In this document: positions 4,431 through 39,300 of the stretch, piece after piece | Numbering within the stretch: the first letter of the stretch is position 1 | Layout: each line of letters starts with the position of its first letter | From: Escherichia phage vB_EcoP_FFK3 | Length of the DNA: 39,300 bases | Strand: one strand, 5' to 3' | Sequence record: ON548433.1 | Notes under the pieces: generated by a model | What the model saw: only the letters and a program-made list of their open reading frames with translations | The model's database searches: none | What the model was told of the DNA's origin: nothing | Made by a program: the position numbers and the translations under genes

Positions 4431-4478
4431 GTTAGACTCAAGGTCATTACTGTATGTAGTGGCCTTTATGGTTAACAC
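4431..4478 (+). other. Conserved stem-loop element, putative RNase III processing site (R18.5-like)
   Basis: GACTCAAGGTCAT..GTGGCCTTTATGGTTAAC; stem AAGGTCAT (4440-4447) pairs with GTGGCCTT (4459-4466) with two G-U wobbles; outer GTTA/TAAC pairing. Confidence 0.55.
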
Positions 4479-4529
4479 TAACTAGTGGAGGAGACTCTAC
4501 GTGCAATCTGATAAACCGGGAGGGCAACT

Positions 4530-7194: not shown

Positions 7195-7444
7195 CGCAAT
7201 CATGGTAACGATTCATGAAAGGAGGTAGGTAGGTGTGAACGAAGATGACTACGTGTCGTTCTCAGAAGAGGACTACCAGACAGAGTGGGAATACGCACAT
7301 GGGAGGAAGAGCTAAGGTCAGTACGTGGATAAAGACTCACTCTACTGACCTTAGCTACTGTAGTCAAGGACTTTAGGTAACACCTTAATAGAAGCTCACT
7401 TAGTGTCATCCTACTTATTGGTCTATCCTAGTGTCGCCTGACCT

Positions 7445-7485
7445 ACGGTCCTTGACCTACAGTGGCTGTGGCCTACAGTAGTGAC
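7445..7485 (+). repeat. Short-repeat array (CCTAC(A/G)GT x3) on the right-end side of the terminal repeat
   Basis: GACCTACGGT, GACCTACAGT, GGCCTACAGT within 40 nt. Confidence 0.6.
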
Positions 7486-7517
7486 GATGAGTTTTGGACC
7501 AAAAGTTTGAGACCACA

Positions 7518-7705
7518 TCTCACAGTTCAAGAACCTCAAGTCTCCCCATAGGCCCTCTTTAAGTCCAGACCAAAGGCCCTACCCAGTCTATCATAAGGCT
7601 GGACCGATGGTCGACGATAGGTCTAGGCTATGGCTGGAGGTCAGGACGATAGGTAGGGACTATTGGTCTGTCTTTGAGTCTCTATCTGTATAGTGTTATA
7701 GTATA
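7518..7705 (+). repeat. Candidate terminal repeat (single copy as in a concatemer junction or circularised assembly); boundaries approximate
   Basis: Begins TCTCACAGT..CCCCATAGG, resembling the recalled first bases of the T7 genome; ends near ..GAGTCTCTATCTGTATAGTG, resembling the end of the T7 terminal repeat; flanked by short-repeat arrays. Confidence 0.45.
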
Positions 7706-7719
7706 ACATTACGTCCTAC

Positions 7720-7815
7720 ACCTACAGTCCTACACCTACAGTCCTACAACCTACAGTCCTACAACCTACAGTCTCAACCATAAGACACCAACACCTACAG
7801 TCAGAGACCTACAGT
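7720..7815 (+). repeat. Short-repeat array (about 6 copies of ACCTACAGT) on the left-end side of the terminal repeat
   Basis: CCTACACCTACAGT x2, CCTACAACCTACAGT x2, then two more CCTACAGT copies; analogous to T7 CCTAAAG repeats. Confidence 0.65.
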
Positions 7816-7926
7816 TACTAGACACAGAGCTATAGACTTAAGGTCAAAGACATGTTAGTCAAAGACTATATCCTCTTACACCATGAGGTCGACGATAGCT
7901 TAATCAATATTATTTCAAATTACCTA

Positions 7927-7962
7927 TTGACTATAGGTCAAGACTATGGCTTAATAGCTTCC
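7927..7962 (+). promoter_or_regulatory. Candidate host sigma70 early promoter (A1-like), weak -10
   Basis: TTGACT at 7927-7932 followed 17-19 nt later by TTAATA/TAATAG. Confidence 0.3.
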
Positions 7963-8067
7963 GTCAACACGACACGGCAACAACCGGATAGTGAAGACGC
8001 CTGGTCATCCCGGTTAAGTAGACAGCCTGATAAGACATACGAACAACAGGCAAACGACAGAAAGTAG

Positions 8068-8617: not shown

Positions 8618-8962
8618 ATGGAACGTAACGCTAACGCATACTATGAGCTGCTGGCTGCAACCGTTGAGCTGTTCAATGAGCGTATTCAGTACGACGAAAT
8701 AGCTGAAGGCGATGACTACTATGATGCGCTGCATGAGGTCGTAGACGGTCAGGTTCCGCACTATTACCACGATATTTTTACGGTGATGGCTGCTGATGGT
8801 ATAGACCACGAGTTCGAAGACTCTGGGCTGATGCCTGAGACCAAGGACGTAACGCGTATACTACAAGCTCGCATCTATGAGGCACTGTATAACGATGTGT
8901 ATGATAGCTCGGATGTAGTCTGGTTTGAGGCTGAAGAGAGTGACGAGGAGGACTGCGAGTGA
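8618..8962 (+). CDS. ocr: Ocr-like DNA-mimic anti-restriction protein (T7 gp0.3 homolog)
   Basis: 114 aa, highly acidic; near-identical blocks to recalled T7 Ocr ([43 protein letters not shown]). Confidence 0.85.
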
Positions 8963-9818: not shown

Positions 9819-12500
9819 ATGAGCGTCATCTCTATTGATAAACACGACTTCTCTGATGTGTCGAACGCCATTGAGCCGTTTAACCTGCTGGCCGACCACT
9901 ACGGGCAAGATCTTGCAGTCAAACAGCTTCAGCTTGAGCATGAGGCATACACTGAAGGCGAGCGACGTTTCATCAAGAACCTTGAGCGACAGACTGAGCG
10001 CGGGGAACTGGCAGACAATCAGGTCGCCAAGCCTTTGATGCAGACTCTGGTCCCTAAGATTGCGCAAGCCGTCAAGGAGTGGCACGAAGGTCCAGACGGG
10101 AAGCTGTCAACCTCTCGTCCTAGCGTAGCGTTCACCATGTTGAGCACTGAAGAGAAGGCCGTCAAGGACCGCTCACTGCGTATCTCTTGCGAGTCTGCTG
10201 CGGTCATCATACTGAAGGTCATACTCTCCAAGCTGGTCAAGCCTGAGGGGATACCAATTACACCGATGGCTTCCGCGATAGGTCGCACACTTGAGGATGA
10301 AATCCGCTTCGGTCGCATCCGTGACAAGGAGAAGGAGCACTTCAAGAAGGCGATAGCTGATAACCTGAATAAGCGGGCCGGGGCGTCCTACAAGAAAGCC
10401 TACATGCAAGCGGTCGAGGCATCCATGCTGGAGCAAGGACAACTTGAAGATGCGTGGGGAACTTGGAGTCCTACAGAGGCTGTCCACGTTGGCATCAAGA
10501 TGCTTGAGATTGTCATCCAGTCAACACAACTGGTAGAGCTTAAGCGGTACGGTGCTGGCAATGCAGCGGCTGACGTAGAGATGGTCCACCTGTCAGACTT
10601 CTGGGTCAAGAAGATGGCACAACGAGGATTCAGCCTTGCGGGTATCGCTCCAGTCTACCAGCCTTGCGTCGTTCCACCTAAGCCGTGGACTGGTGTCGTA
10701 GGTGGTGGGTACTGGGCCAAAGGTCGCAGACCGTTACCATTGATTCGCTTAGGGTCTAAGTCTGCGGTGGCACGTTATGAAGACGTGTACATGCCTGAAG
10801 TCTATGACGCTGTGAATATCATCCAGAATACACCTTGGAAAGTGAACAAGAAGGTATTAGACGTGGTGAACATGGTCGAGAAGCTGAACAACACGCCTAT
10901 TGATGACATCCCTCAGATGGAACCGCTGAAGCCTGAAGACTATGCGGGTGAGACTGAGGAGGAACTCAAGGCATGGAAGAAGGCTGCTGCTGGTATCTAT
11001 CGCCGCGAGAAGGCCAGACAGTCACGCAGATTATCACTGAGCTTTATCGTTAACCAAGCGAACAAGTTCTCTCAGTTCAAGGCCATCTGGTTCCCGTACA
11101 ACATGGACTGGCGAGGTCGTGTCTACGCTGTGCCGATGTTCAACCCTCAGGGTAACGACATGCAGAAGGGTCTCCTGACTCTGGCAGTCGGTAAGCCTAT
11201 TGGTGCTGATGGTTTCAAATGGCTGAAGGTCCACGGTGCAAACTGTGCTGGTGTCGATAAAGTCACCTTCGAGGAGCGTATCAAGTGGGTGGAAGACAAC
11301 CACGAAAACATCATGGCTGCTGCTAAGGCACCGATGGATAGTATTGAGTGGTGGGGCAAGTTAGACTCTCCGTTCTGTTTCCTCGCGTTCTGCTTCGAGT
11401 ATGCTGGCGTAATGCACCACGGCCTGTCTTACTCCTGCTCGCTGCCGATAGCGTTCGATGGGTCCTGCTCTGGTATTCAGCACTTCAGTGCGATGCTTCG
11501 TGACCACATCGGTGGACATGCAGTAAACCTGACGCCATCCGGTAAGGTACAAGACATCTACCGCATTGTGTCTGACCGCATTGAGGAGGAGCTTAAAGTC
11601 CTGCTGATTAACGGTACTGACAACGAGATGGTCACTCACGAGGATAAGAAAACTGGTGAGATTACCGAACGTATCAAGCTGGGGACACGAGAGCTGGCCC
11701 GGCAGTGGCTGACTTACGGCATGTCACGCAAGGTCACTAAGCGTTCAGTAATGACTCTGGCCTATGGGTCGAAAGAGTACGGCTTCGCAGACCAAGTTTA
11801 TGAGGACATCGTGATGCCAGCGATTGACTCAGGGTCTGGCGCTATGTTCACCGAACCAAGCCAAGCGTCCCGCTTCATGGCTAAGATGATTTGGGAAGCT
11901 GTGAGCGTGACCGTAGTTGCTGCGGTTGACGCGATGAAGTGGCTTCAGGGTGCTGCCAAGCTGCTGGCTGCTGAAGTGAAGGACAAGAAGACTGGAGAAA
12001 TCCTGAAGCCTTGCCTTCCGGTACACTGGGTAACACCTGATGGTTTCCCGGTCTGGCAGGAATACCGCAAGAAGGATACCACTCGTCTGAATCTGATGTT
12101 CTTAGGGTCATTCAACCTTCAACCTACGGTCAACAAAGGCACGAAGAAAGAGCTTGACAAGCACAAGCAGGAGTCAGGCATTAGCCCGAACTTCGTCCAC
12201 TCACAAGATGGTAGCCACCTCCGCAAGACTGTAGTCCACACGCATCGCAAGTATGGCGTGATGTCATTCGCAGTGATTCATGATAGCTTCGGGACCATCC
12301 CGGCTGACGCTGAACATCTGTTCCGTGGTGTCCGTGAGACGATGGTCGAGACCTACCGCGACAACGATGTGCTGCTTGACTTCTACGAGCAGTTTGAATA
12401 CCAGCTTCATGAGAGCCAGCGCGACAAGTTGCCTGAGCTTCCGAAGAAAGGTAAACTGAATATCGAAGACATCTTGTCTTCAGACTTTGCATTCGCTTAA
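9819..12500 (+). CDS. gp1: Single-subunit DNA-directed RNA polymerase (T7 gp1 homolog)
   Basis: 893 aa; conserved T7 RNAP blocks incl. catalytic DGSCSGIQH and C-terminal FAFA; RBS AAGGA. Confidence 0.95.
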   Translation: MSVISIDKHDFSDVSNAIEPFNLLADHYGQDLAVKQLQLEHEAYTEGERRFIKNLERQTERGELADNQVAKPLMQTLVPKIAQAVKEWHEGPDGKLSTSRPSVAFTMLSTEEKAVKDRSLRISCESAAVIILKVILSKLVKPEGIPITPMASAIGRTLEDEIRFGRIRDKEKEHFKKAIADNLNKRAGASYKKAYMQAVEASMLEQGQLEDAWGTWSPTEAVHVGIKMLEIVIQSTQLVELKRYGAGNAAADVEMVHLSDFWVKKMAQRGFSLAGIAPVYQPCVVPPKPWTGVVGGGYWAKGRRPLPLIRLGSKSAVARYEDVYMPEVYDAVNIIQNTPWKVNKKVLDVVNMVEKLNNTPIDDIPQMEPLKPEDYAGETEEELKAWKKAAAGIYRREKARQSRRLSLSFIVNQANKFSQFKAIWFPYNMDWRGRVYAVPMFNPQGNDMQKGLLTLAVGKPIGADGFKWLKVHGANCAGVDKVTFEERIKWVEDNHENIMAAAKAPMDSIEWWGKLDSPFCFLAFCFEYAGVMHHGLSYSCSLPIAFDGSCSGIQHFSAMLRDHIGGHAVNLTPSGKVQDIYRIVSDRIEEELKVLLINGTDNEMVTHEDKKTGEITERIKLGTRELARQWLTYGMSRKVTKRSVMTLAYGSKEYGFADQVYEDIVMPAIDSGSGAMFTEPSQASRFMAKMIWEAVSVTVVAAVDAMKWLQGAAKLLAAEVKDKKTGEILKPCLPVHWVTPDGFPVWQEYRKKDTTRLNLMFLGSFNLQPTVNKGTKKELDKHKQESGISPNFVHSQDGSHLRKTVVHTHRKYGVMSFAVIHDSFGTIPADAEHLFRGVRETMVETYRDNDVLLDFYEQFEYQLHESQRDKLPELPKKGKLNIEDILSSDFAFA

Positions 12501-12793: not shown

Positions 12794-12816
12794 CCTAAAC
12801 TATCACTATAGGATTA
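12794..12816 (+). promoter_or_regulatory. Phage RNAP promoter (phi1.1A-like)
   Basis: CCTAAACTATCACTATAGGATTA; +1 G at 12811. Confidence 0.8.
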
Positions 12817-12857
12817 GACTCAAGGTCATGACTCAAAGTCGTGGCCTTCATGATTAA
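12814..12857 (+). other. Conserved stem-loop element, putative RNase III site (R1.1-like)
   Basis: TTAGACTCAAGGTCATG..GTGGCCTTCATGATTAA; stem AAGGTCAT (12822-12829) with GTGGCCTT (12841-12848). Confidence 0.55.
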
Positions 12858-12888
12858 CCCTATAACCTAAACAACTGGAGCTACAACA

Positions 12889-17342: not shown

Positions 17343-17558
17343 ATGATTAAACTTATCGAATTTCTTGGTCGTCTGGTGGTGCGTGGGTATCGTCGTGCTG
17401 CGGTACTGGAACGAAAGGTAGAAAAGAAGACTGCGGACGGTGCGGCTGATGCTGCTGCTCTGGCTGACAAGCTGACCATAGCGTCACTGGAAGCTGGCAT
17501 GAAGGCGCGTCAGGCTGACACCAAAGCTGACCAGTTGGCTCAGTTATTCAAAGCCTAA
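17343..17558 (+). CDS. Hypothetical basic coiled-coil protein
   Basis: 71-aa ORF; Ala/Lys-rich. Confidence 0.45.
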   Translation: MIKLIEFLGRLVVRGYRRAAVLERKVEKKTADGAADAAALADKLTIASLEAGMKARQADTKADQLAQLFKA

Positions 17559-17576
17559 ACTATCACCTTAGGGATG
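17554..17576 (+). promoter_or_regulatory. Degenerate phage promoter-like site (CACCTTAGGG)
   Basis: CCTAAACTATCACCTTAGGGATG; conserved -17 to -6, two mismatches at -4 to -2. Confidence 0.4.
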
Positions 17577-17626
17577 GGACCATTAGTCCTGTCCCTTTGT
17601 TCGCATTTGTGACTAAGGAGTGACCA

Positions 17627-17806
17627 ATGGTTACAGTTATTCTAGTTCTAACGCTGATCAGTGGTAGTGGGCAAACTATCAGCCAAGTACCTATAACAGC
17701 GCCAACATTACAGGACGCATTCACAATATGTGACCAGTCCGGCTCAAAGTGGGCCGATAAGTTTGGCGATGTCTCAAACGTTGCAGCAGGGTATGAGTGT
17801 ATTTAA
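17627..17806 (+). CDS. Hypothetical small protein with signal-peptide-like N-terminus
   Basis: 59-aa ORF; preceded by TAAGGAGTGACCAATG identical to the gene 4 initiation region; N-terminus MVTVILVLTLISGSG. Confidence 0.35.
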   Translation: MVTVILVLTLISGSGQTISQVPITAPTLQDAFTICDQSGSKWADKFGDVSNVAAGYECI

Positions 17807-17813
17807 GGAGTGA

Positions 17814-19517
<1,704 letters not shown>

Positions 19518-19550
19518 TTACGAGAAGTATAAATGGAGGGTTCCATTCTA

Positions 19551-19856
19551 ATGTTACGAAAACTTAAAGCTCGCTACCATCGGTTCATGTACAAATGGTG
19601 GAGTGACGAAGCAACCTGCCTGTCCAACATTCTGGGAGACCAAAGGTTCGAAGGCGTGGGGAGGGTAAAGCTCGATACCATCGGTTCATGTACAAATGGT
19701 GGAGCGACGAAGCAACCTGCCTGTCGAACATTCTGGGAGACCAAAGGTTCGACTCTGAGGCGTGGAAGAGAGCTAACAGGAAGTTTATGTATCACTTCTT
19801 GCGTACAGACTTCTAGGTCTAGACTCAAGGTCATTCATAGCGAGTGGCCTTTATGA
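19551..19856 (+). CDS. Hypothetical small protein, reading frame altered by an internal tandem duplication
   Basis: ATG 19551 with SD GGAGGG; frame runs through duplication copy 1 and then through the downstream stem-loop to 19856; a reconstructed single-copy gene would be 54 aa and stop at 19816. Confidence 0.4.
   Translation: MLRKLKARYHRFMYKWWSDEATCLSNILGDQRFEGVGRVKLDTIGSCTNGGATKQPACRTFWETKGSTLRRGRELTGSLCITSCVQTSRSRLKVIHSEWPL
19565..19765 (+). repeat. Tandem direct duplication (copies 19565-19659 and 19666-19765, offset 101 bp)
   Basis: Copies differ by 3 substitutions plus a 5-bp indel (CTCTG); offset not a multiple of 3. Confidence 0.85.
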
Positions 19857-19860
19857 TTAG
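19819..19860 (+). other. Conserved stem-loop element, putative RNase III site (R4.7-like)
   Basis: CTAGACTCAAGGTCATTC..GTGGCCTTTATGATTAG; stem AAGGTCAT (19827-19834) with GTGGCCTT (19844-19851). Confidence 0.55.
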
Positions 19861-19880
19861 ACTAAAGCGGAGGATTAACC

Positions 19881-22052
19881 ATGTTTGACCTTAAGAGTAT
19901 CTGGGGTTCTGACATCGAGACCAACGGTCTCCTTGATACAGTCTCCCAGTTTCACTGTGGGGTCCTGATTAACGCCGAGTCGAATGAGACCCTTAAGTAT
20001 GGGGTAGCTCCGATGGTCGGTATCGTCGGCGGCTTCAAAGAGTATGTTCATAAAGTGGAAGAGATTGCCGCATCACCTGATGGTATGCTGGTATTCCATA
20101 ACGGCATCAACTATGACGTCCCTGCTATAGACAAGCTGAAACGTATGTACTTTGGGAAACGATTTAACTTCCCGAAACATAAGATGATTGATACCTTGGT
20201 GCTGGGACGCTTGATGTATCCAAACATTAAGTTCTCAGACATGGGCGCAGTGAAAGCTGGTCGTCTGCCGCCTAAGATGATGGGACGACAGTCTCTTGAG
20301 GCTTGGGGCTATCGTCTCGGTGAGATGAAGGGTGAGTACAAACACGATTACGTTGCCAAGTGCAAGGCCGAAGGTATCGAATATAAGGCTGGGGACGAAT
20401 GGTTGTTCCCGTCTCAGGAGATGCTGGACTATAACGTTCAAGACGTTGTGGTCACGCTGGCGTTGTTCAAGAAGTTCCTGACTGACAAGTATTACTTCCA
20501 GTCTGAACAGTTCGCTTTCGACCAGATTTATGCGTTGCGTCTGGAACATGATGCTGCGTGGACCTGTGCGAAGATGGAACGTAACGGCTATCCGATGAAC
20601 ACCGAGATGGTCGAAGGCTTATATCGTGAACTCACCGTCAAGCGTGCAGAGCTGCTGGACAAGCTGCGTTCGACTTTCGGTAGCTGGTACGCACCAAAGG
20701 GCGGAAAGGAGTTCTTCAAGCACCCACGGACAGGCAAGGACCTTCCGAAGTATCCGCGAGTCGTGTATCCTAAGGTCGGGTCAGTATTCAAGAAGCCGAA
20801 GAACAAAGCTCAACGCTTAGGTCTGGAGCCTTGCGAGTTCGACTCACGAGACACGATGGAGGGAGCACCGTTCACACCTATCACTTACGTTGAGTTTAAT
20901 CCGGGAAGCGGGGACCACTTAGCGAAAGTTCTGATGGAGCGTGGCTGGGAGCCTGTGGACTTCACTGACACCGGGAAACCTGTAGTCGATGACGAGACGT
21001 TGGAACACGTTAAGTTGCCAGACGAAGAGGCTCAGGCTTGCGTAGAGCTGGTCCGTGAGTATCTGGTAGTCCAGAAGCGCATCGGTCAGGCTGCTGAAGG
21101 TAAGAACGCATGGTTGAAACTTGTAGGTCCAGACGGACGTATGCACGGTTCAATAAACCCATGCGGGGCAGTAACCGGACGTGCGACTCACAGTTCACCA
21201 AACATGGCTCAGGTCCCTGCTAACGGTGCTCCGTACGGTGAGACTTGCCGTGGTGCTTTCGGTGCAGCGTGGAACAAGAAGGACGGTAAGCCAGACCCTT
21301 GGATTCAAGTAGGCGTGGATGCTTCAGGTCTTGAGCTTCGTTGTCTGGGGAACCGAGCGGCTCCGTTTGATGGTGGCGCCTATGCGAAGACTGTGGTCGA
21401 AGGTGACATCCACTGGGCCAACGCAGTCAACGCTGGGTTAGCACCTAACGTCCCACGCAATAAGTCCAGCCACGACCATGATGCTTTCCGTAACAACGCT
21501 AAGACGTTCATCTATGCGTTCCTATATGGTGCAGGGGCCGCGAAGATTGGACTGATAGTTGGCGGTGGTAAGAAGGAAGGTGCTGCCCTGATGAAGAAAT
21601 TCATTGAGGGTACACCAGCTATTAAAGACCTCAGGGAAGCTGTGAGTAATACGTTAATCTCCGAATCCAAATGGGTAGATGGAGAGAACATCGTGAAGTG
21701 GAAACGTCGCTGGCTGAAAGGTCTGGATGGTCGCCGTATCCACATCCGGTCTCCACACTCAGCACTAAACGCATTACTTCAAGGCGATGGTGCGGTTGTC
21801 TGTAAGCACTGGATTGTAGAGACTGAACGTATGCTTGAAGAGGCAGGGTATGTTCACGGCTGGGAGGGGGACTTCGCGTACATGGCCTGGGTTCACGACG
21901 AATTGCAGATTGCGTGCCGTACTCAGGAGATTGCCGAAGAAGTCGTCAAGATTGCTCAACTTGCTATGCGTAAGGTGGGTGAGTTCTATAACTTTAAATG
22001 TGTCCTTGATACCGAAGGTAAGATTGGACCAACGTGGAAGGAGTGTCACTAA
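19881..22052 (+). CDS. gp5: DNA polymerase (T7 gp5 homolog, family A with 3-prime to 5-prime exonuclease domain)
   Basis: 723 aa; N-terminal exo motif DIETNGL; overall T7 gp5 architecture; RBS GGAGGA. Confidence 0.95.
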   Translation: MFDLKSIWGSDIETNGLLDTVSQFHCGVLINAESNETLKYGVAPMVGIVGGFKEYVHKVEEIAASPDGMLVFHNGINYDVPAIDKLKRMYFGKRFNFPKHKMIDTLVLGRLMYPNIKFSDMGAVKAGRLPPKMMGRQSLEAWGYRLGEMKGEYKHDYVAKCKAEGIEYKAGDEWLFPSQEMLDYNVQDVVVTLALFKKFLTDKYYFQSEQFAFDQIYALRLEHDAAWTCAKMERNGYPMNTEMVEGLYRELTVKRAELLDKLRSTFGSWYAPKGGKEFFKHPRTGKDLPKYPRVVYPKVGSVFKKPKNKAQRLGLEPCEFDSRDTMEGAPFTPITYVEFNPGSGDHLAKVLMERGWEPVDFTDTGKPVVDDETLEHVKLPDEEAQACVELVREYLVVQKRIGQAAEGKNAWLKLVGPDGRMHGSINPCGAVTGRATHSSPNMAQVPANGAPYGETCRGAFGAAWNKKDGKPDPWIQVGVDASGLELRCLGNRAAPFDGGAYAKTVVEGDIHWANAVNAGLAPNVPRNKSSHDHDAFRNNAKTFIYAFLYGAGAAKIGLIVGGGKKEGAALMKKFIEGTPAIKDLREAVSNTLISESKWVDGENIVKWKRRWLKGLDGRRIHIRSPHSALNALLQGDGAVVCKHWIVETERMLEEAGYVHGWEGDFAYMAWVHDELQIACRTQEIAEEVVKIAQLAMRKVGEFYNFKCVLDTEGKIGPTWKECH

Positions 22053-22210
22053 TGGCTAAAACTTATAGTGAGCAGGAGGTCAAAGACCTGATGCGGTCAG
22101 CTTGGTGGTGTGGACACGAGGAGTCTCGTTATAGTCCAAACCTCAGTGGTTCATGCAGTCAAGACATTCATGAAATCCTGAAAGAACATAACGAAGAAGG
22201 AGAAGGCTAA
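22052..22210 (+). CDS. Hypothetical small protein
   Basis: 52-aa ORF; start overlaps pol stop (TAATG) and stop overlaps next start. Confidence 0.4.
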   Translation: MAKTYSEQEVKDLMRSAWWCGHEESRYSPNLSGSCSQDIHEILKEHNEEGEG

Positions 22211-22500
22211 TGGCTATTACTAAACGTATGCGAGTTTCATTCTCGCTTGGCGCTGTACTGTCTACTGAAGAAGTTGAGCACTTCAAGAAGTCTCTCTGTG
22301 AGTTGAGCCGTAAGGTTCTCAATGGTGAGAAGACCACTGGCTTCGAGCGTAAGATGGTCGAGGTCGGCGTTACAGATGGTCTGGAAGCTGTGGTAGAGCT
22401 TGTCTTTAAGAAGGGTATTGTTGATGGTCTGAAAGAAGACCTGAGTCATTATGCTGACAAGCCCAGCTTCGGAGACTTCCGAGTGGAGTTCAAGCAATGA
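22210..22500 (+). CDS. gp5.5-like protein
   Basis: 96 aa; position and size as T7 gp5.5; start overlaps preceding stop. Confidence 0.5.
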   Translation: MAITKRMRVSFSLGAVLSTEEVEHFKKSLCELSRKVLNGEKTTGFERKMVEVGVTDGLEAVVELVFKKGIVDGLKEDLSHYADKPSFGDFRVEFKQ

Positions 22501-22706
22501 GTGAATACTTACGGGTCCTAGCGGCCCTTAAGTCCTGCCCGAAGACCTTCCAGTCCAACTATGTGCGCAACAACGCTGCACTTGTGGCTGAGGCTGCGAG
22601 TCGTGGACATCTAAGCTGCCTGTCTATGGATGGGCGTAACAACGGTGCGTGGGAGATTACCGCTGAAGGCACCAAGTTCCTGAACCAACACGGAGGCTGT
22701 CTATGA
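22497..22706 (+). CDS. gp5.7-like protein
   Basis: 69 aa; position and size as T7 gp5.7; motif KSCPKTFQSNYVRNNAALVAEAASRGH. Confidence 0.55.
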   Translation: MSEYLRVLAALKSCPKTFQSNYVRNNAALVAEAASRGHLSCLSMDGRNNGAWEITAEGTKFLNQHGGCL

Positions 22707-23152
22707 AGATACCTGAAAGTCTGAAAGAGCTGGTCCTTGAAATGGGTGAGTGCGAGATGACGCACCGTAAGTATGCTGAGTTCTACGCATCTTGGTCTTA
22801 CACCCTGACCGAGAAGGACGTTGAGTCCTACACCGAGTCTCCTTCTGAGGCTTATGAGTGGAGTCCGTTCATCGGACTGACCATCGTAGCTAGCGGTATG
22901 TGGGATGACAGCTACGGCTCAGAGGTAAACGACTGGGACGTGTACCGCCAAGTTGAGAAGGAGACCGAAATGTCTTCCAACTTCTGGAGCCTGATGTCCC
23001 ACCTCAACTCAGATGACAACGACATGGCCCATGAGTTCGCCAACAAATGGCTGAAGCCTGAGGTGACTCTGGAACGTATTGAGGAGCCTAAAGTTCCCTT
23101 GATGCCATATGCAGTCGCTATGGCTACAGGAGGTCTGGACGATGGGTGCTGA
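22703..23152 (+). CDS. Hypothetical highly acidic protein at the gp5.9 position
   Basis: 149 aa; 30 Asp+Glu versus 11 Lys+Arg; lies immediately upstream of the exonuclease gene. Confidence 0.55.
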   Translation: MKIPESLKELVLEMGECEMTHRKYAEFYASWSYTLTEKDVESYTESPSEAYEWSPFIGLTIVASGMWDDSYGSEVNDWDVYRQVEKETEMSSNFWSLMSHLNSDDNDMAHEFANKWLKPEVTLERIEEPKVPLMPYAVAMATGGLDDGC

Positions 23153-24011
23153 GAAGAAGATAGCTCTTGTTCTTGATGGCGATTACCTAGTATTCTCTTC
23201 TATGGCTGCTGCCGAGGACGAGACAGACTGGGGTGATGACATCTGGACCCTTATCTGCGACCACGAGAAGGCTCGCCGTATCCTTGAGAACACCATCGCT
23301 GAAATCGTTAAGAAGCGCAAGGCGTGGAAAGACGCTAAGATTGTGATGTGCTTTACTGATGATAACAACTGGCGTAAGGACGTTTTGCCTACCTATAAGG
23401 CTAACCGTAAGGGTTCTCGCAAGCCTGTAGGTTACAAGAAGTTCGTAGCCGAAGTGATGGCTGACCCACGGTTCAACAGCTTCCTGCGTCCAACGCTTGA
23501 GGGTGATGATTGTATGGGTATCATCGGGACCAGACCTCAGATTGTCGGATGCGACCATGCGGTGCTGGTGTCCTGCGATAAGGACTTCAAGACCATCCCG
23601 AACTGTGAGTTCTTCTGGTTAACCACTGGTGAAATCCTGAGTCATACGACTTCCGAGGCAGACTACTGGCACATGGAGCAGACCATCAAGGGTGACACTA
23701 CAGATGGCTACGGCGGTATTCCGGGGATGGGTGAGGACACCACTCGTGCATTCCTTGACGAACCGTATTACTTCGTGCAGGAGAGCCGCGAGCTTAAGAC
23801 TGGCAAGAACAAAGGCCAGATTAAGACTGAGTGGAAGAAGTATCCGAAGCGTGAAGACATGACGCTGTGGGACTGCATGGTTACACTGGCTGCTAAGGCT
23901 GGCATGACCGAGGAGGAACTTCTGGTCCAAGCTCAGGTCGCTCGTATTTGTCGAGCATCTGACTATGACCCTAAGTCCAAGGAGGTCATCCTATGGACAC
24001 CATCCATGTAA
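23142..24011 (+). CDS. gp6: 5-prime to 3-prime exonuclease (T7 gp6 homolog)
   Basis: Start at ATG 23142 with RBS AGGAGG; FEN-family features (LVLDGDYL); T7 gp6 is 300 aa. Confidence 0.9.
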   Translation: MGAEKKIALVLDGDYLVFSSMAAAEDETDWGDDIWTLICDHEKARRILENTIAEIVKKRKAWKDAKIVMCFTDDNNWRKDVLPTYKANRKGSRKPVGYKKFVAEVMADPRFNSFLRPTLEGDDCMGIIGTRPQIVGCDHAVLVSCDKDFKTIPNCEFFWLTTGEILSHTTSEADYWHMEQTIKGDTTDGYGGIPGMGEDTTRAFLDEPYYFVQESRELKTGKNKGQIKTEWKKYPKREDMTLWDCMVTLAAKAGMTEEELLVQAQVARICRASDYDPKSKEVILWTPSM

Positions 24012-24137
24012 TTTACTGGGTCGGACTTCTTGCCCTTTACTGCATGTACAAGGGGTTCGGGTCGAACAACCGCCCTAAACACTGAGTCTAGCCGATAGTC
24101 ATATCCTATCAATCCAACAGTCATCCATAGGTGAAAC

Positions 24138-24160
24138 ACTAAACTATCACTATAGGGACT
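24138..24160 (+). promoter_or_regulatory. Phage RNAP promoter (phi6.5-like, class III-like)
   Basis: ACTAAACTATCACTATAGGGACT; +1 G at 24155. Confidence 0.8.
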
Positions 24161-35994: not shown

Positions 35995-38900
35995 ATGGCG
36001 ACTCGTGGTATTCGCAATAACAATCCTGGTAATATACGGGTAAGTAAGGACCAATGGGAAGGAATGACTGGAGATGATGGCGCCTTCGTCACCTTCGATA
36101 GTCCAGAGTCTGGCGTCCGAGCTTTAGGTAAAAACCTGCTGTCCTACGGTCGCCGAGGTTATGACTCCATCGAGAAGATTATCAACCGATGGGCGCCTCC
36201 TAACGAGAACGACACTAAGGCTTATATTGACTCAGTGGTGGCTGCAACTGGTATTCCAGCTACCCAGAGTCTCGACCTATCGAACCCTGACACCCTGTCT
36301 GCTCTGGCGCAAGCTATTAGCTTCCATGAGACAGGCTCCCGGTACAATCCTGAAGTCTATCAGAAGGGAGTCGAAAGAGCACTTAACGGCATTAGCCCAA
36401 AGACTCCACCAGTAAGCGCTAACGTATTTGACGCACTCACGGAAGGACTCAAGGCTAAACCTAAAGTAGCTCTGGGTGAGAACCTTCCGACCGCTGCTGG
36501 TCTAAACATTGAGGGTCAAGCACCTGAAGCTCCCAACGAATCGTTCGGTGAGATGTTCTATAAGTCTACTGGCGAGACCATGCAGGAACGAGAGGATCGC
36601 TCTACGTGGTTCGGTTTCGGCTCGGCTACAGAAGCTGAAGTGAAGAACTCTATGGTCGGCGTGGCTATCCGCGCTGGTCAGACCGAGGACTCACTTGATG
36701 TCATTGGCGATGTGTTCAACCCTACCCGCTGGAACAACCATAAGTGGTCTCGTGAGGAGCTGGACCAGATTCGTAACGCTGGGGTTCTCCCTCAGTATTA
36801 CGGAGTAATTACTGGCGGTTCTCCTCAGAATCTGACAGAGCTGATCAACTTGGCGCTTGAGAACCAGAAGTTGGACCAAGAGAAGGCCAAGGCTGGGACT
36901 GGTGCTCAGCTAGCAGCTGGTGTGATTGGTGCTGGTGTAGATCCTCTGACCTACGTTCCTATCGCTGGACAGGTTGGTAAAGGTGGGAAGCTGGTCAACA
37001 AGATGTTCACCGTGGCTGCTCAATCTGGAGCACTTGCTGGTGTATCAGAGATGGCCCGTACCTCAGTGGCTGGTGGGGATGCTCATGTGGCTGAAGCTAT
37101 CCTTGGTGGTGCTCTCTTCGGCGGAGGCATGACTGCCATCGCTGATGGGTTAGGCAGAGCCTTAGGGCGCAACACTAATGAGTTTGCTGGCCCAGCTACA
37201 CGTCTGGAAGCTCGTGAGACCGCTCGTAACGTTGATGGTCAGGACCTGTCTCGTCTTCCTATTCAGGAAGGTGAGCAGACCTTTAGTCATCAAGGCGTTA
37301 AGTTCGCTGACGTTCCTAATGAGCCTGGTAGTGTGCGGCTGGAGGATGGTTCAATCCTGATTGGTGAGAACCCTCTGAACCCTAAGACACGTAAAGTCTT
37401 CGACGAAGTGATTGAGCCTGAACGGGCCGCTGCTGGTGTGAACCTTGGTGGTCTGACCGAGATTGGCCTGAAGCTGCTTCGGTCTGAGAACCCCGAGATT
37501 CGTGGAGTAGCTGCTGACTTAGTGCGTTCACCGACTGGTATGCAGTCTGGGGCCTCAGGTAAAATCGGGACCACTGCGTCTGACGTATTCGAGAGACTCC
37601 GTGCTGTGGACCATCGGTTCTACAACGACATCGACGATGCGGTTACTGAGGCACTAAAGGACCCGCACTTCCAGACAGCATTCTGGCGAGACTCTGGAGC
37701 ATTCCGTCAGGACATCTACCAGCGCGTGTCTATGGCTATCGAAGATGGCAGCGGAAACCTGAAGGCTGAACTGACTCCGGGAGAACTTAAAGTCTATGAC
37801 CTACTGAAGAACCAGTTTGACGCCAAGCGTGAGATGATGGAGAACCCAGCGATGTTTGGTCGTCCAGACGCTCAGTCTATCTTTCCGGGTAGCCGCTTCA
37901 AGGGAACCTACGTCCCTCATGTGTATAGCAACCAGATGAAGGAGCTGTACACCAAGGAGCTTGGGAGTCCAGAGGCACTACAGGAGGCCATCAAGAAGTC
38001 ATGGTTGACCAGCTATGCGTCTCGACCTGAAGTCAAGAAACGTGTGGACGAGGCACTCTTAGAGTCTGACCCTACGTTGACTCCAGAAGGACTTGCGGCT
38101 GCGGTCGATAAGTACGCCAACGATAAGGCTTATGGTATCTCTCACACCGAGCAGTTCGAGCGTTCATCCGTAATGGAAGAGAACATCAATGGTCTGGTTG
38201 GTCTGGAGAACAACAGCTTCCTTGAGGCTCGTAACCTGTTCGATAGCGATATGTCAATCGTCCTACCTAACGGTCAGACCTTCAGTGTCAACAACCTGCG
38301 TGAGTGGGACATGGACAAGATTGTCCCGGCCTACAACCGTCGAGTTAATGGCGATATTGCTATCATGGCTGGTACAGGCAAGACCACGAAGGACATGAAG
38401 GACTTGGTTGAGACCATGATGAACAAGGCTGGGGATGACGGTAAGTTGAAAGGTGAAGTATCTACCTTACGTGACACCTTGAAGATTCTAACTGGTCGTG
38501 CTCGACGTGATGGGGCTGATGATGCAGCCTTCGCTGCCGTGATGCGCACAATGACAGACCTATCGTTCTTCGCTAAGAATGCCTATATGGGTGTTCAGAA
38601 CTTAACGGAGATTGGTGGTATGCTGGCCCGTGGTAACGTTCGTGCAATGCTGCATGGAGTCCCAATTTTCCGTGACCTAGCCTTCCGTAACAAGAAAGTT
38701 GGGGCCTCAGAGATTAAGGACCTGCACAATGTTATCTTTGGTAAGGAGCTGGATGACTCAATCCGTCCGTCTAAACAGGATGTCATTGACCGTCTGCGAT
38801 CTTACAGTGACCTCGGTCGTGGTGCAGCTACAGCTCTGGGGACTGCCAAGTATTACACTGGCGAACTTGCAGTACGCTCTCCGTTCACTAAAGTCCTCAA

Positions 38901-39300
38901 CGGTACGACCAACTACCTGTTAGATGCTGGACGTCAAGGCTTCCTGTCTGACATCGTGGAGCATAGCCTGACTGGTAGTAAGCGTAAGTTCGATGACCGC
39001 TGGCTGAAGACCGCTGGTATCTCTGACGAGCAGTGGAAGGGCATTAAGTCCCTAATCCGTGAGTCAGTGACTCGTGGTCCAGACGGGAAGTATATCATCA
39101 AGGATAAGAAGGCGTTCAGTCAGGACCCAAGGGCTATGGACCTGTGGCGTATGGGTGATACCATCGCTGACGAAACGTTACTCCGTCCTCATAAGCTGTC
39201 CAACATGGACGCCAAGGCTTATGGTCCTATCGCTAAGACTGTCCTTCAGTTTAAGAACTTCGTCATCAAGTCCATCAATGGACGTACCATGCGAACCTTC
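35995..39300 (+). CDS. gp16: Internal virion protein D (gp16), N-terminal 1102 codons; 3-prime end beyond the window
   Basis: ORF from ATG 35995 open to the window end; position after gp15; large size as T7 gp16; continues into the fragment at window start. Confidence 0.85.
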   Translation, partial: MATRGIRNNNPGNIRVSKDQWEGMTGDDGAFVTFDSPESGVRALGKNLLSYGRRGYDSIEKIINRWAPPNENDTKAYIDSVVAATGIPATQSLDLSNPDTLSALAQAISFHETGSRYNPEVYQKGVERALNGISPKTPPVSANVFDALTEGLKAKPKVALGENLPTAAGLNIEGQAPEAPNESFGEMFYKSTGETMQEREDRSTWFGFGSATEAEVKNSMVGVAIRAGQTEDSLDVIGDVFNPTRWNNHKWSREELDQIRNAGVLPQYYGVITGGSPQNLTELINLALENQKLDQEKAKAGTGAQLAAGVIGAGVDPLTYVPIAGQVGKGGKLVNKMFTVAAQSGALAGVSEMARTSVAGGDAHVAEAILGGALFGGGMTAIADGLGRALGRNTNEFAGPATRLEARETARNVDGQDLSRLPIQEGEQTFSHQGVKFADVPNEPGSVRLEDGSILIGENPLNPKTRKVFDEVIEPERAAAGVNLGGLTEIGLKLLRSENPEIRGVAADLVRSPTGMQSGASGKIGTTASDVFERLRAVDHRFYNDIDDAVTEALKDPHFQTAFWRDSGAFRQDIYQRVSMAIEDGSGNLKAELTPGELKVYDLLKNQFDAKREMMENPAMFGRPDAQSIFPGSRFKGTYVPHVYSNQMKELYTKELGSPEALQEAIKKSWLTSYASRPEVKKRVDEALLESDPTLTPEGLAAAVDKYANDKAYGISHTEQFERSSVMEENINGLVGLENNSFLEARNLFDSDMSIVLPNGQTFSVNNLREWDMDKIVPAYNRRVNGDIAIMAGTGKTTKDMKDLVETMMNKAGDDGKLKGEVSTLRDTLKILTGRARRDGADDAAFAAVMRTMTDLSFFAKNAYMGVQNLTEIGGMLARGNVRAMLHGVPIFRDLAFRNKKVGASEIKDLHNVIFGKELDDSIRPSKQDVIDRLRSYSDLGRGAATALGTAKYYTGELAVRSPFTKVLNGTTNYLLDAGRQGFLSDIVEHSLTGSKRKFDDRWLKTAGISDEQWKGIKSLIRESVTRGPDGKYIIKDKKAFSQDPRAMDLWRMGDTIADETLLRPHKLSNMDAKAYGPIAKTVLQFKNFVIKSINGRTMRTF

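Follow-up and report, generated by a model that had tools for sequence, protein, structure and literature searches.

HOR59_gp33 is a genuine gene that occupies the slot of gene 5.9 in the genome of a T7-like podophage and encodes a protein of conserved acidity. It belongs to the accessory region of the genome, its product shares one module with other proteins of the same slot and matched no known fold, and its family was confined to phage sequences within the searches run. We tentatively propose, as a reading of somewhat less than even probability, that HOR59_gp33 is a non-enzymatic accessory protein that acts by binding a host factor of DNA processing or defence and thereby neutralising it. 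The gene had already been annotated and assigned to a catalogued but uncharacterised PHROG; the census of the slot, the chain of modules leading to gp5.9-like proteins, the explanation of the junction tail, the conserved acidity, and the absence of a known fold are new.

Genomic position and expression context

The window, i.e., the whole stretch of DNA analyzed, was 39,300 nt in length (Escherichia phage vB_EcoP_FFK3, ON548433.1). The 2.1-kb stretch compared was 100% identical to Escherichia phage vB_EcoP_F (Kayfunavirus F; KY295894 / NC_047808; phage F below), a K1-capsule-specific T7-like podophage. The record is circularly permuted relative to the T7 convention. The gene for gp16 was split over the record ends (35995-39300, continuing to 27-581), and the tailspike, holin, and terminase genes preceded the early region. 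The following features were identified at and around the locus, all on the plus strand:

17548..17572, +, nearest 5′ copy of the phage RNA polymerase promoter, consensus CTAAACTATCACTATAGG (next copy at 24132-24156)
22497..22706, +, gp5.7 homologue, the conserved left flank of the slot
22692..22696, +, Shine-Dalgarno sequence GGAGG of HOR59_gp33, 6 nt 5′ of the ATG
22703..23152, +, HOR59_gp33 CDS, 149 aa, PHROG 4382, annotated as "hypothetical protein" (dN/dS 0.05-0.26 for residues 1-129)
23129..23133, +, Shine-Dalgarno sequence GGAGG of gene 6, within the tail codons of HOR59_gp33 (encoding G-G)
23142..24011, +, gene 6, 5′-3′ exonuclease, the conserved right flank of the slot

The preliminary description, made from the sequence alone, had placed the ORF at the gp5.9 locus, and it was indeed located between genes 5.7 and 6, the position of gene 5.9 in T7. 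The ATG of HOR59_gp33 (22703) overlaps the TGA stop codon of the gp5.7 homologue (22704-22706) in the sequence ATGA, which suggests translational coupling of HOR59_gp33 to gp5.7. At the other end, HOR59_gp33 shares 11 nt with gene 6, which starts at 23142; location between 5.7 and 6 with an overlap of gene 6 is characteristic of gp5.9-type genes. No promoter- or terminator-like site above the chance level was found from 17548 to 24132, and therefore HOR59_gp33 belongs to the class II (DNA metabolism) transcription unit together with genes 4, 5, and 6. Residues 1-129, compared among five Kayfunavirus alleles, were under purifying selection; these dN/dS values, together with homologues in several phage genera, identify HOR59_gp33 as a real gene.

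Acidity of the protein

The composition given in the preliminary description was confirmed: the 149-aa product of 22703..23152 contained 30 acidic residues (10 Asp and 20 Glu) against 11 basic ones (8 Lys and 3 Arg), with a pI of 4.26. Its net charge of -0.128 per residue ranked second in acidity among 48 annotated CDSs; with a genome mean of about +0.006 acidic excess and a standard deviation of 0.067, its z value was 1.8. The acidity of HOR59_gp33 is thus that of an outlier, not an extreme. The most acidic CDS encoded the phage's own Ocr-like protein, with -0.237 per residue, so the charge profile comparable to Ocr that had been claimed for HOR59_gp33 was an overstatement. The strong net negative charge typical of DNA mimics was present in HOR59_gp33, though weaker than in Ocr. 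For T7 gp5.9, the net charge was -0.154 per residue.

All 42 aligned family members, originating from Kayfunavirus, Przondovirus, Aarhusvirus, Jarilovirus, Elunavirus, a Providencia phage, and Ounavirinae, were acidic (net charge from -0.07 to -0.155 per residue, pI 4.15-5.0). Most of the acidic positions drift across the family, and only seven (5, 9, 13, 20, 74, 105, and 111) were kept as acidic. According to the sequence and the predicted secondary structure, E5, E9, and E13 form a conserved i/i+4/i+8 acidic stripe on helix 1.

The third most acidic CDS of the genome was a 52-aa ORF at the gp5.3 position (22052-22210; 11 acidic and 5 basic residues). It belongs to PHROG 20928 of unknown function and is a candidate accessory gene.

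Family membership and distribution

HOR59_gp33 matched the profile of PHROG 4382 (unknown function) with an E value of 1.2e-48, its residues 1-130 covering positions 6-129 of the 130 in the profile. HOR59_gp33 thus belongs over its full length to this family, which brings no functional information. The Pfam scan yielded nothing above the threshold (best hit SLT_L, E 0.21) and no match to the Ocr model, NCBIfam and PDB sequence searches yielded no match, and the PHROGs search matched only families of unknown function. When 1.84 billion representative proteins were searched exhaustively with an HMM, 44 related representative clusters were retrieved, which consisted of phage sequences only. No match was found in 185,579 bacterial and archaeal genomes, prophages included, scanned with one degenerate pattern of limited sensitivity. 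The family was conserved over its full length across at least 6 genera and two phage families. Its members were named "hypothetical protein" in nearly all database entries, the exceptions being two isolated automated labels, and no mention of the PHROG 4382 family was found in the literature and supplements searched. Truncated copies also occurred: the 91-aa K42PH8 and P0065 proteins lacked the middle of the core, and P0028 and P0030 were truncated as well. In Ounavirinae myophages (Mooglevirus, Suspvirus), the homologue was located between nrdD and nrdG with no nuclease nearby.

In a second group of phages, uncultured, ~85-105 kb in size and unrelated to the T7-like ones, a relative consisting of the core only was encoded directly 3′ of a FEN-type 5′-3′ exonuclease (PHROG 107), which was related to the gp6 alignment with an hhalign E value of 1e-4; in one locus (L100) the two genes overlapped by 4 nt. 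Twenty ~90 kb loci were examined, and in most of them an HNH endonuclease gene (PHROG 1985) was located 3′ of the relative. Related ~90 kb contigs go from the exonuclease directly to HNH without a family member, and the latter is therefore an optional insert in these phages. In a ~52 kb metagenomic phage contig, an HNH domain (PHROG 1985) was fused in frame to a PHROG 4382 core (L112 3371-4318, also L116), in the order opposite to that of the separate adjacent genes of the ~90 kb phages. This fusion was considered as Rosetta-stone evidence and downgraded because it is a singleton in IMG/VR and exonuclease-HNH pairs exist without the family member.

Predicted structure and modular organization

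The AlphaFold2 model of HOR59_gp33, built on a 33-sequence alignment, had a mean pLDDT of 81.5, with values of 85-94 at residues 1-120 and below 50 at residues 130-149, which are predicted to be disordered. The predicted order of elements was H5-14, E16-21, E26-34, H37-43, H47-56, E59-68, E72-86, H89-100, H107-116, and E120-125, i.e., five beta-strands and five helices, all short, in a globular alpha/beta arrangement. The protein was divided into the following parts, all on the plus strand:

22703..22966, +, beta-sheet core domain, residues 1-88 (AF2 pLDDT 85-94, conservation)
22967..23053, +, SHLN module, residues 89-117, a helix - acidic loop - helix insert, EMSSNFWSLMSHLNSDDNDMAHEFANKWL
23060..23077, +, final beta-strand returning to the core sheet, residues 120-125 (AF2 model)
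23090..23152, +, disordered tail KVPLMPYAVAMATGGLDDGC, residues 130-149 and the stop codon (pLDDT <50, dN/dS 0.2-1.05)

The model matched no solved structure and showed no similarity to solved mimics (Ocr, Gam, gp5.9, Ugi, ArdA, etc.). The core carried the motifs E-x-[EH]-[HF]-R/x-K-[YH] and G-x-W-[SD]-D-x-x-G-x-[ED]. G65 and G72 were invariant, L97 and F112 nearly invariant, and K23 nearly always basic, so that the best-conserved side chains include this basic residue and aromatics. Neither an enzyme-like fold nor a catalytic-type constellation of residues was seen, and the lack of such a constellation argues for a binding protein over an enzyme. An EF-hand-like reading of the acidic loop was rejected by eye, as its spacing does not fit.

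Many distant relatives of 100-117 aa consisted of the core only (profile positions 6-92) followed directly by the final strand; residues 89-117 (FWSLMSHLNSDDNDMAHEF) are therefore regarded as an insert. The motif of this SHLN module, LMSHLNxEDNxMAxEF, recurred as the N-terminus of acidic slot proteins of 66-76 aa and on a 56-aa protein (P0095), and the module matched PHROG 6163. A metagenomic protein of 163 aa (P0076) was a circularly permuted relative, in which the SHLN module is N-terminal and the beta-core follows (PHROG 24684 + PHROG 6163); the permuted order supports core and SHLN module being independent units.

Direct homology between HOR59_gp33 and gp5.9 was rejected by hhalign: the alignment of the HOR59_gp33 family gave a probability of 0.1% with T7 gp5.9, in agreement with the earlier remark that the two proteins have no obvious motif in common, and the C-module and the full family gave 0.15% and 0.09%, respectively, with a T7 + T3 gp5.9 profile. 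Shared modules were found instead in three steps. The SHLN insert matched the N-terminal ~28 residues of proteins in which this module is joined to a "GVDNW" module (hhalign 97.6%, E 3.7e-12); the remaining ~50 residues of these SHLN+GVDNW proteins matched T3-type gp5.9 (hhalign 96.6%, E 5.7e-10); and the N-half of T3-type gp5.9 matched T7 gp5.9 (blastp about 1e-7). By these alignments, HOR59_gp33 is linked to gp5.9 through a chain of three successive module swaps, not by homology. The chain leaves out the C-half of gp5.9, the part that contacts RecB.

Variability of the slot between gp5.7 and gene 6

We classified the content between gp5.7 and gene 6 in 80 T7-like loci from IMG/VR (L012-L091), found with the gene 6 alignment; in each locus the slot lies 5′ of position ~2501. 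Single-linkage grouping of the slot proteins merged 48 of them, spuriously joined by their common junction tail and by mosaic modules, and was rejected; a module-wise census was therefore used, with the following result:

19/80 loci, slot empty
12/80 loci, HOR59_gp33 family (3 of 12 also with a 58-aa basic ORF)
11/80 loci, unrelated acidic family (EPWSDELP...GDWTD...GYETEF)
10/80 loci, KOW-like small proteins
8/80 loci, T3-type gp5.9
5/80 loci, GVDNW module with another N-terminus
3/80 loci, SHLN module fused to the GVDNW module
1/80 loci, T7-type gp5.9
remainder of the 80 loci, Cys-rich, HNH, or orphan ORFs

At least 10 types of cargo were present, up to three of them in tandem, e.g., KOW-like, basic 58-aa, and acidic GVDNW proteins in L089. 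Acidic proteins from at least four unrelated families were found in about 39 of the 61 occupied slots. A member of the HOR59_gp33 family never occurred together with a gp5.9-type protein (0/80 loci, with about 2.4 expected by chance; these counts are small and phylogenetically non-independent). Since 19 slots were empty, the function of HOR59_gp33 is either dispensable or supplied elsewhere.

Genes of accessory regions are recognized by variable presence or absence between conserved flanks in close phages (Silas et al., bioRxiv 10.1101/2023.04.06.535777). Genomes with a gp6 that shares at least 94% identity with its phage F counterpart carried a full-length HOR59_gp33, an empty slot, or three other cargos, and in near-identical Kayfunavirus genomes the slot was empty or held five or more different cargos; HOR59_gp33 is thus an accessory-region gene of variable presence between conserved core flanks. 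Its tail recurred on unrelated cargos (LLGATLAMAKGGLRDE, LLAATVPAMSKAKAVSDE) and is a read-through translation of the conserved translation-initiation region of gene 6. Being common to unrelated cargos, the tail marks the right-hand junction of the cassette.

The unrelated acidic family of the slot is a second uncharacterised one (97-136 aa, EPWSDELPDxW...GDWTDxHK...GYETEF...EVEPYE; L019, L028, L036, L038, L041-L043, L051, L060, L063, and L067). A likeness between SGMWDDSYGSEV of HOR59_gp33 and SGDWTDSHKSES of this family was considered and found unsupported (hhalign probability 0.75%).

Comparison with gp5.9, Ocr, and other inhibitors

T7 gp5.9 is a DNA mimic that inhibits RecBCD and MukBEF (PMC9836394, PMC7617805) and is sensed by retron Ec48 and type III Sir2-HerA (PMC9836394, PMC7617805, PMC13434337); its residues E36, D38/E39, and E45 touch RecB (PMC9836394). 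Like HOR59_gp33, it occupies the slot, overlaps gene 6, is non-essential, acidic, and phage-restricted, and belongs to the same pool of swappable cargos. T7 gp5.9 is, however, a parallel coiled-coil dimer of 52 aa, whereas HOR59_gp33 has 149 aa and is predicted to be globular alpha/beta; neither the size nor the predicted secondary structure of HOR59_gp33 is that of the gp5.9 family (~52-62 aa, an N-terminal beta-strand and a long helix forming the parallel coiled-coil dimer). No gp5.9 homologue was found anywhere in the genome (best tblastn E 0.23). The gp5.9 proteins of the T3/phiYeO3-12 type and the SHLN+GVDNW proteins share the slot with HOR59_gp33, and the N-terminus of the latter proteins is homologous to its insert. 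HOR59_gp33 lacks the C-terminal GVDNW module and the N-half of gp5.9, whereas T3-type gp5.9 and the SHLN+GVDNW proteins lack the beta-sheet core.

Ocr (T7 gp0.3) is an acidic phage protein like HOR59_gp33, and the genome has its own Ocr-like gene at 8618-8962. HOR59_gp33 differs from Ocr in having about half the charge density, another predicted fold, and expression from the middle operon instead of an early one. The likeness to lambda Gam and P22 Abc2 is limited to genomic logic, i.e., a small accessory gene beside the phage's own recombination exonuclease, and neither protein has sequence or fold similarity to HOR59_gp33.

Other features of the genome

The phage RNA polymerase promoter occurred about eleven times in the genome, at 571, 6828, 9721, 12788, 14447, 15428, 17548, 24132, 26953, 27952, and, in a weaker form, 29811. 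An element of ~49 nt was present in three copies (4432-4480, 12814-12862, and 19814-19859), each forming a conserved hairpin (z values of -3.5, -5.4, and -2.7, respectively), in which the sequence of the apical stem varies between copies while pairing is kept. The positions of these hairpins (after gene 18, after gene 1, and before gene 5) match the T7 RNase III sites R18.5, R1.1, and R4.7. An 87-nt direct repeat (19565-19651 / 19666-19752, 97% identical, 101 nt apart) was located inside an unannotated ORF (19533-19856) between the primase/helicase and DNA polymerase genes. A cluster of 14-nt direct repeats of the CCTACACCTACAGT type (7436-7815) was located in the non-coding region that probably holds the true genome end or concatemer junction.

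Three product names in RefSeq are dubious: "alpha,alpha-trehalase" for a 71-aa ORF (7852-8067), "N4-like RNA polymerase" for the T7-type single-subunit RNAP (9819-12500), and "HNS binding protein" for the gp5.7 homologue (22497-22706).

Possible function of HOR59_gp33

Phage genes with a known action against RecBCD are linked to genes for the phage's recombination exonuclease, as in lambda gam-bet-exo, P22 abc-erf, and T7 5.9-6. We favour an inhibitor of a host factor because HOR59_gp33 is an acidic accessory protein swapped at the gp5.9 hotspot beside the phage recombination exonuclease, as in lambda gam-exo and P22 abc-erf; at this tentative level we infer the inhibitory role, the action by protein binding, and the identity of the target. 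HOR59_gp33 would be made from the middle (DNA-metabolism) operon in translational coupling with gp5.7 and the gene 6 exonuclease. Its beta-sheet core with the portable SHLN insert most likely has no enzymatic activity and would act by binding and neutralising a host protein, the contacts being made by the acidic surface conserved in the family and by the SHLN hairpin, which hardly varies. Host factors that process DNA ends or serve in defence are the likeliest targets (a nuclease of the RecBCD type, a complex of the SMC type, or a defence nuclease). HOR59_gp33 would then be one of several swappable cargos, gp5.9 included, at the gp5.7-gene 6 junction.

A nuclease- or defence-inhibiting role had already been suggested in the preliminary description. 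The slot, the lack of a gp5.9 homologue elsewhere in the genome, conserved acidity, accessory status, the absence of an enzyme-like fold, and the module common to acidic proteins resembling T3-type gp5.9 agree with it. Against it stand a globular alpha/beta fold unlike gp5.9, Ocr, Gam, and the other solved mimics, half the charge density of Ocr, only seven conserved acidic positions, a link to gp5.9 that takes three module swaps and leaves out the RecB-contacting region, and the Ounavirinae copies encoded away from nucleases. The conserved K23 and aromatics suit a specific binding pocket as well as a mimic. A bolder version of the inhibitor reading appears doubtful: the gp5.7-gene 6 junction would be a cassette-exchange site shuffling small acidic modules, and HOR59_gp33 a two-module chimera representing a structurally new class of host-nuclease or defence inhibitors, with the SHLN hairpin as a transferable targeting determinant.

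A RecBCD inhibitor acting by DNA mimicry, i.e., a non-homologous functional replacement of gp5.9, would account for the occupation of the gp5.9 slot in a genome with no gp5.9 elsewhere, for a charge density close to that of gp5.9 (-0.128 and -0.154), for the acidic stripe on helix 1, for the family never accompanying a gp5.9-type protein in the 80 loci, and for its adjoining FEN-type exonuclease genes in two phage groups. We consider such a replacement unlikely: HOR59_gp33 has no homology to gp5.9, it is predicted to fold neither as a coiled coil nor like Gam, the region of gp5.9 contacting RecB is absent from both T3-type gp5.9 and HOR59_gp33 (PMC9836394), and the slot is empty in many phages. 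Improbable, too, is a protein that associates with or regulates nucleases of the phage itself (the gene 6 exonuclease, or HNH in other phages) and would serve as an immunity-like inhibitor or a specificity factor. The overlap and translational coupling of the reading frame with gene 6 favour a partner of this kind, as do the relatives in ~90 kb phages between the FEN-type exonuclease and, mostly, HNH (PHROG 1985), one of them with a 4-nt overlap, and the HNH::family-domain fusion. However, gp6 at least 94% identical occurs with an empty slot or unrelated cargos, exonuclease and HNH follow each other without a family member in related ~90 kb phages, the fusion is an IMG/VR singleton, phage F has no annotated HNH gene, and the Ounavirinae copies do not adjoin nucleases.

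In this otherwise acidic protein, basic and aromatic side chains (H21-R22-K23-Y24, W67, Y71 in many members) are conserved best; they are located on adjacent beta-hairpins and could form a pocket. The small size of the protein is typical of known sponges. A "sponge" of small molecules or nucleotide signals, or another ligand binder in place of a protein-binding inhibitor, is nevertheless very unlikely. Least probable of the readings weighed is that HOR59_gp33 is what remains of a selfish or decaying cassette and does nothing for the phage: the rapid turnover of the slot and the truncated copies fit it, whereas purifying selection, conservation over the full length in at least 6 genera and two phage families, a strong ribosome-binding site, and a confidently predicted fold do not. 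The remaining probability belongs to functions beyond those listed here.

If HOR59_gp33 is not an inhibitor, it is one more conserved hypothetical phage protein. T7 gp5.9 is a current focus of work on phage-host conflict, and its slot is a natural library of swappable, mostly acidic, modular proteins; the near-isogenic natural Kayfunavirus genomes with differing slot content constitute a series that is ready for use in experiments. Should the PHROG 4382 protein prove to be inhibitory, the repertoire of proteins acting against nucleases or defence would gain a new fold, and it would become easier to see how therapeutic podophages specific for K1 and Klebsiella do without gp5.9.
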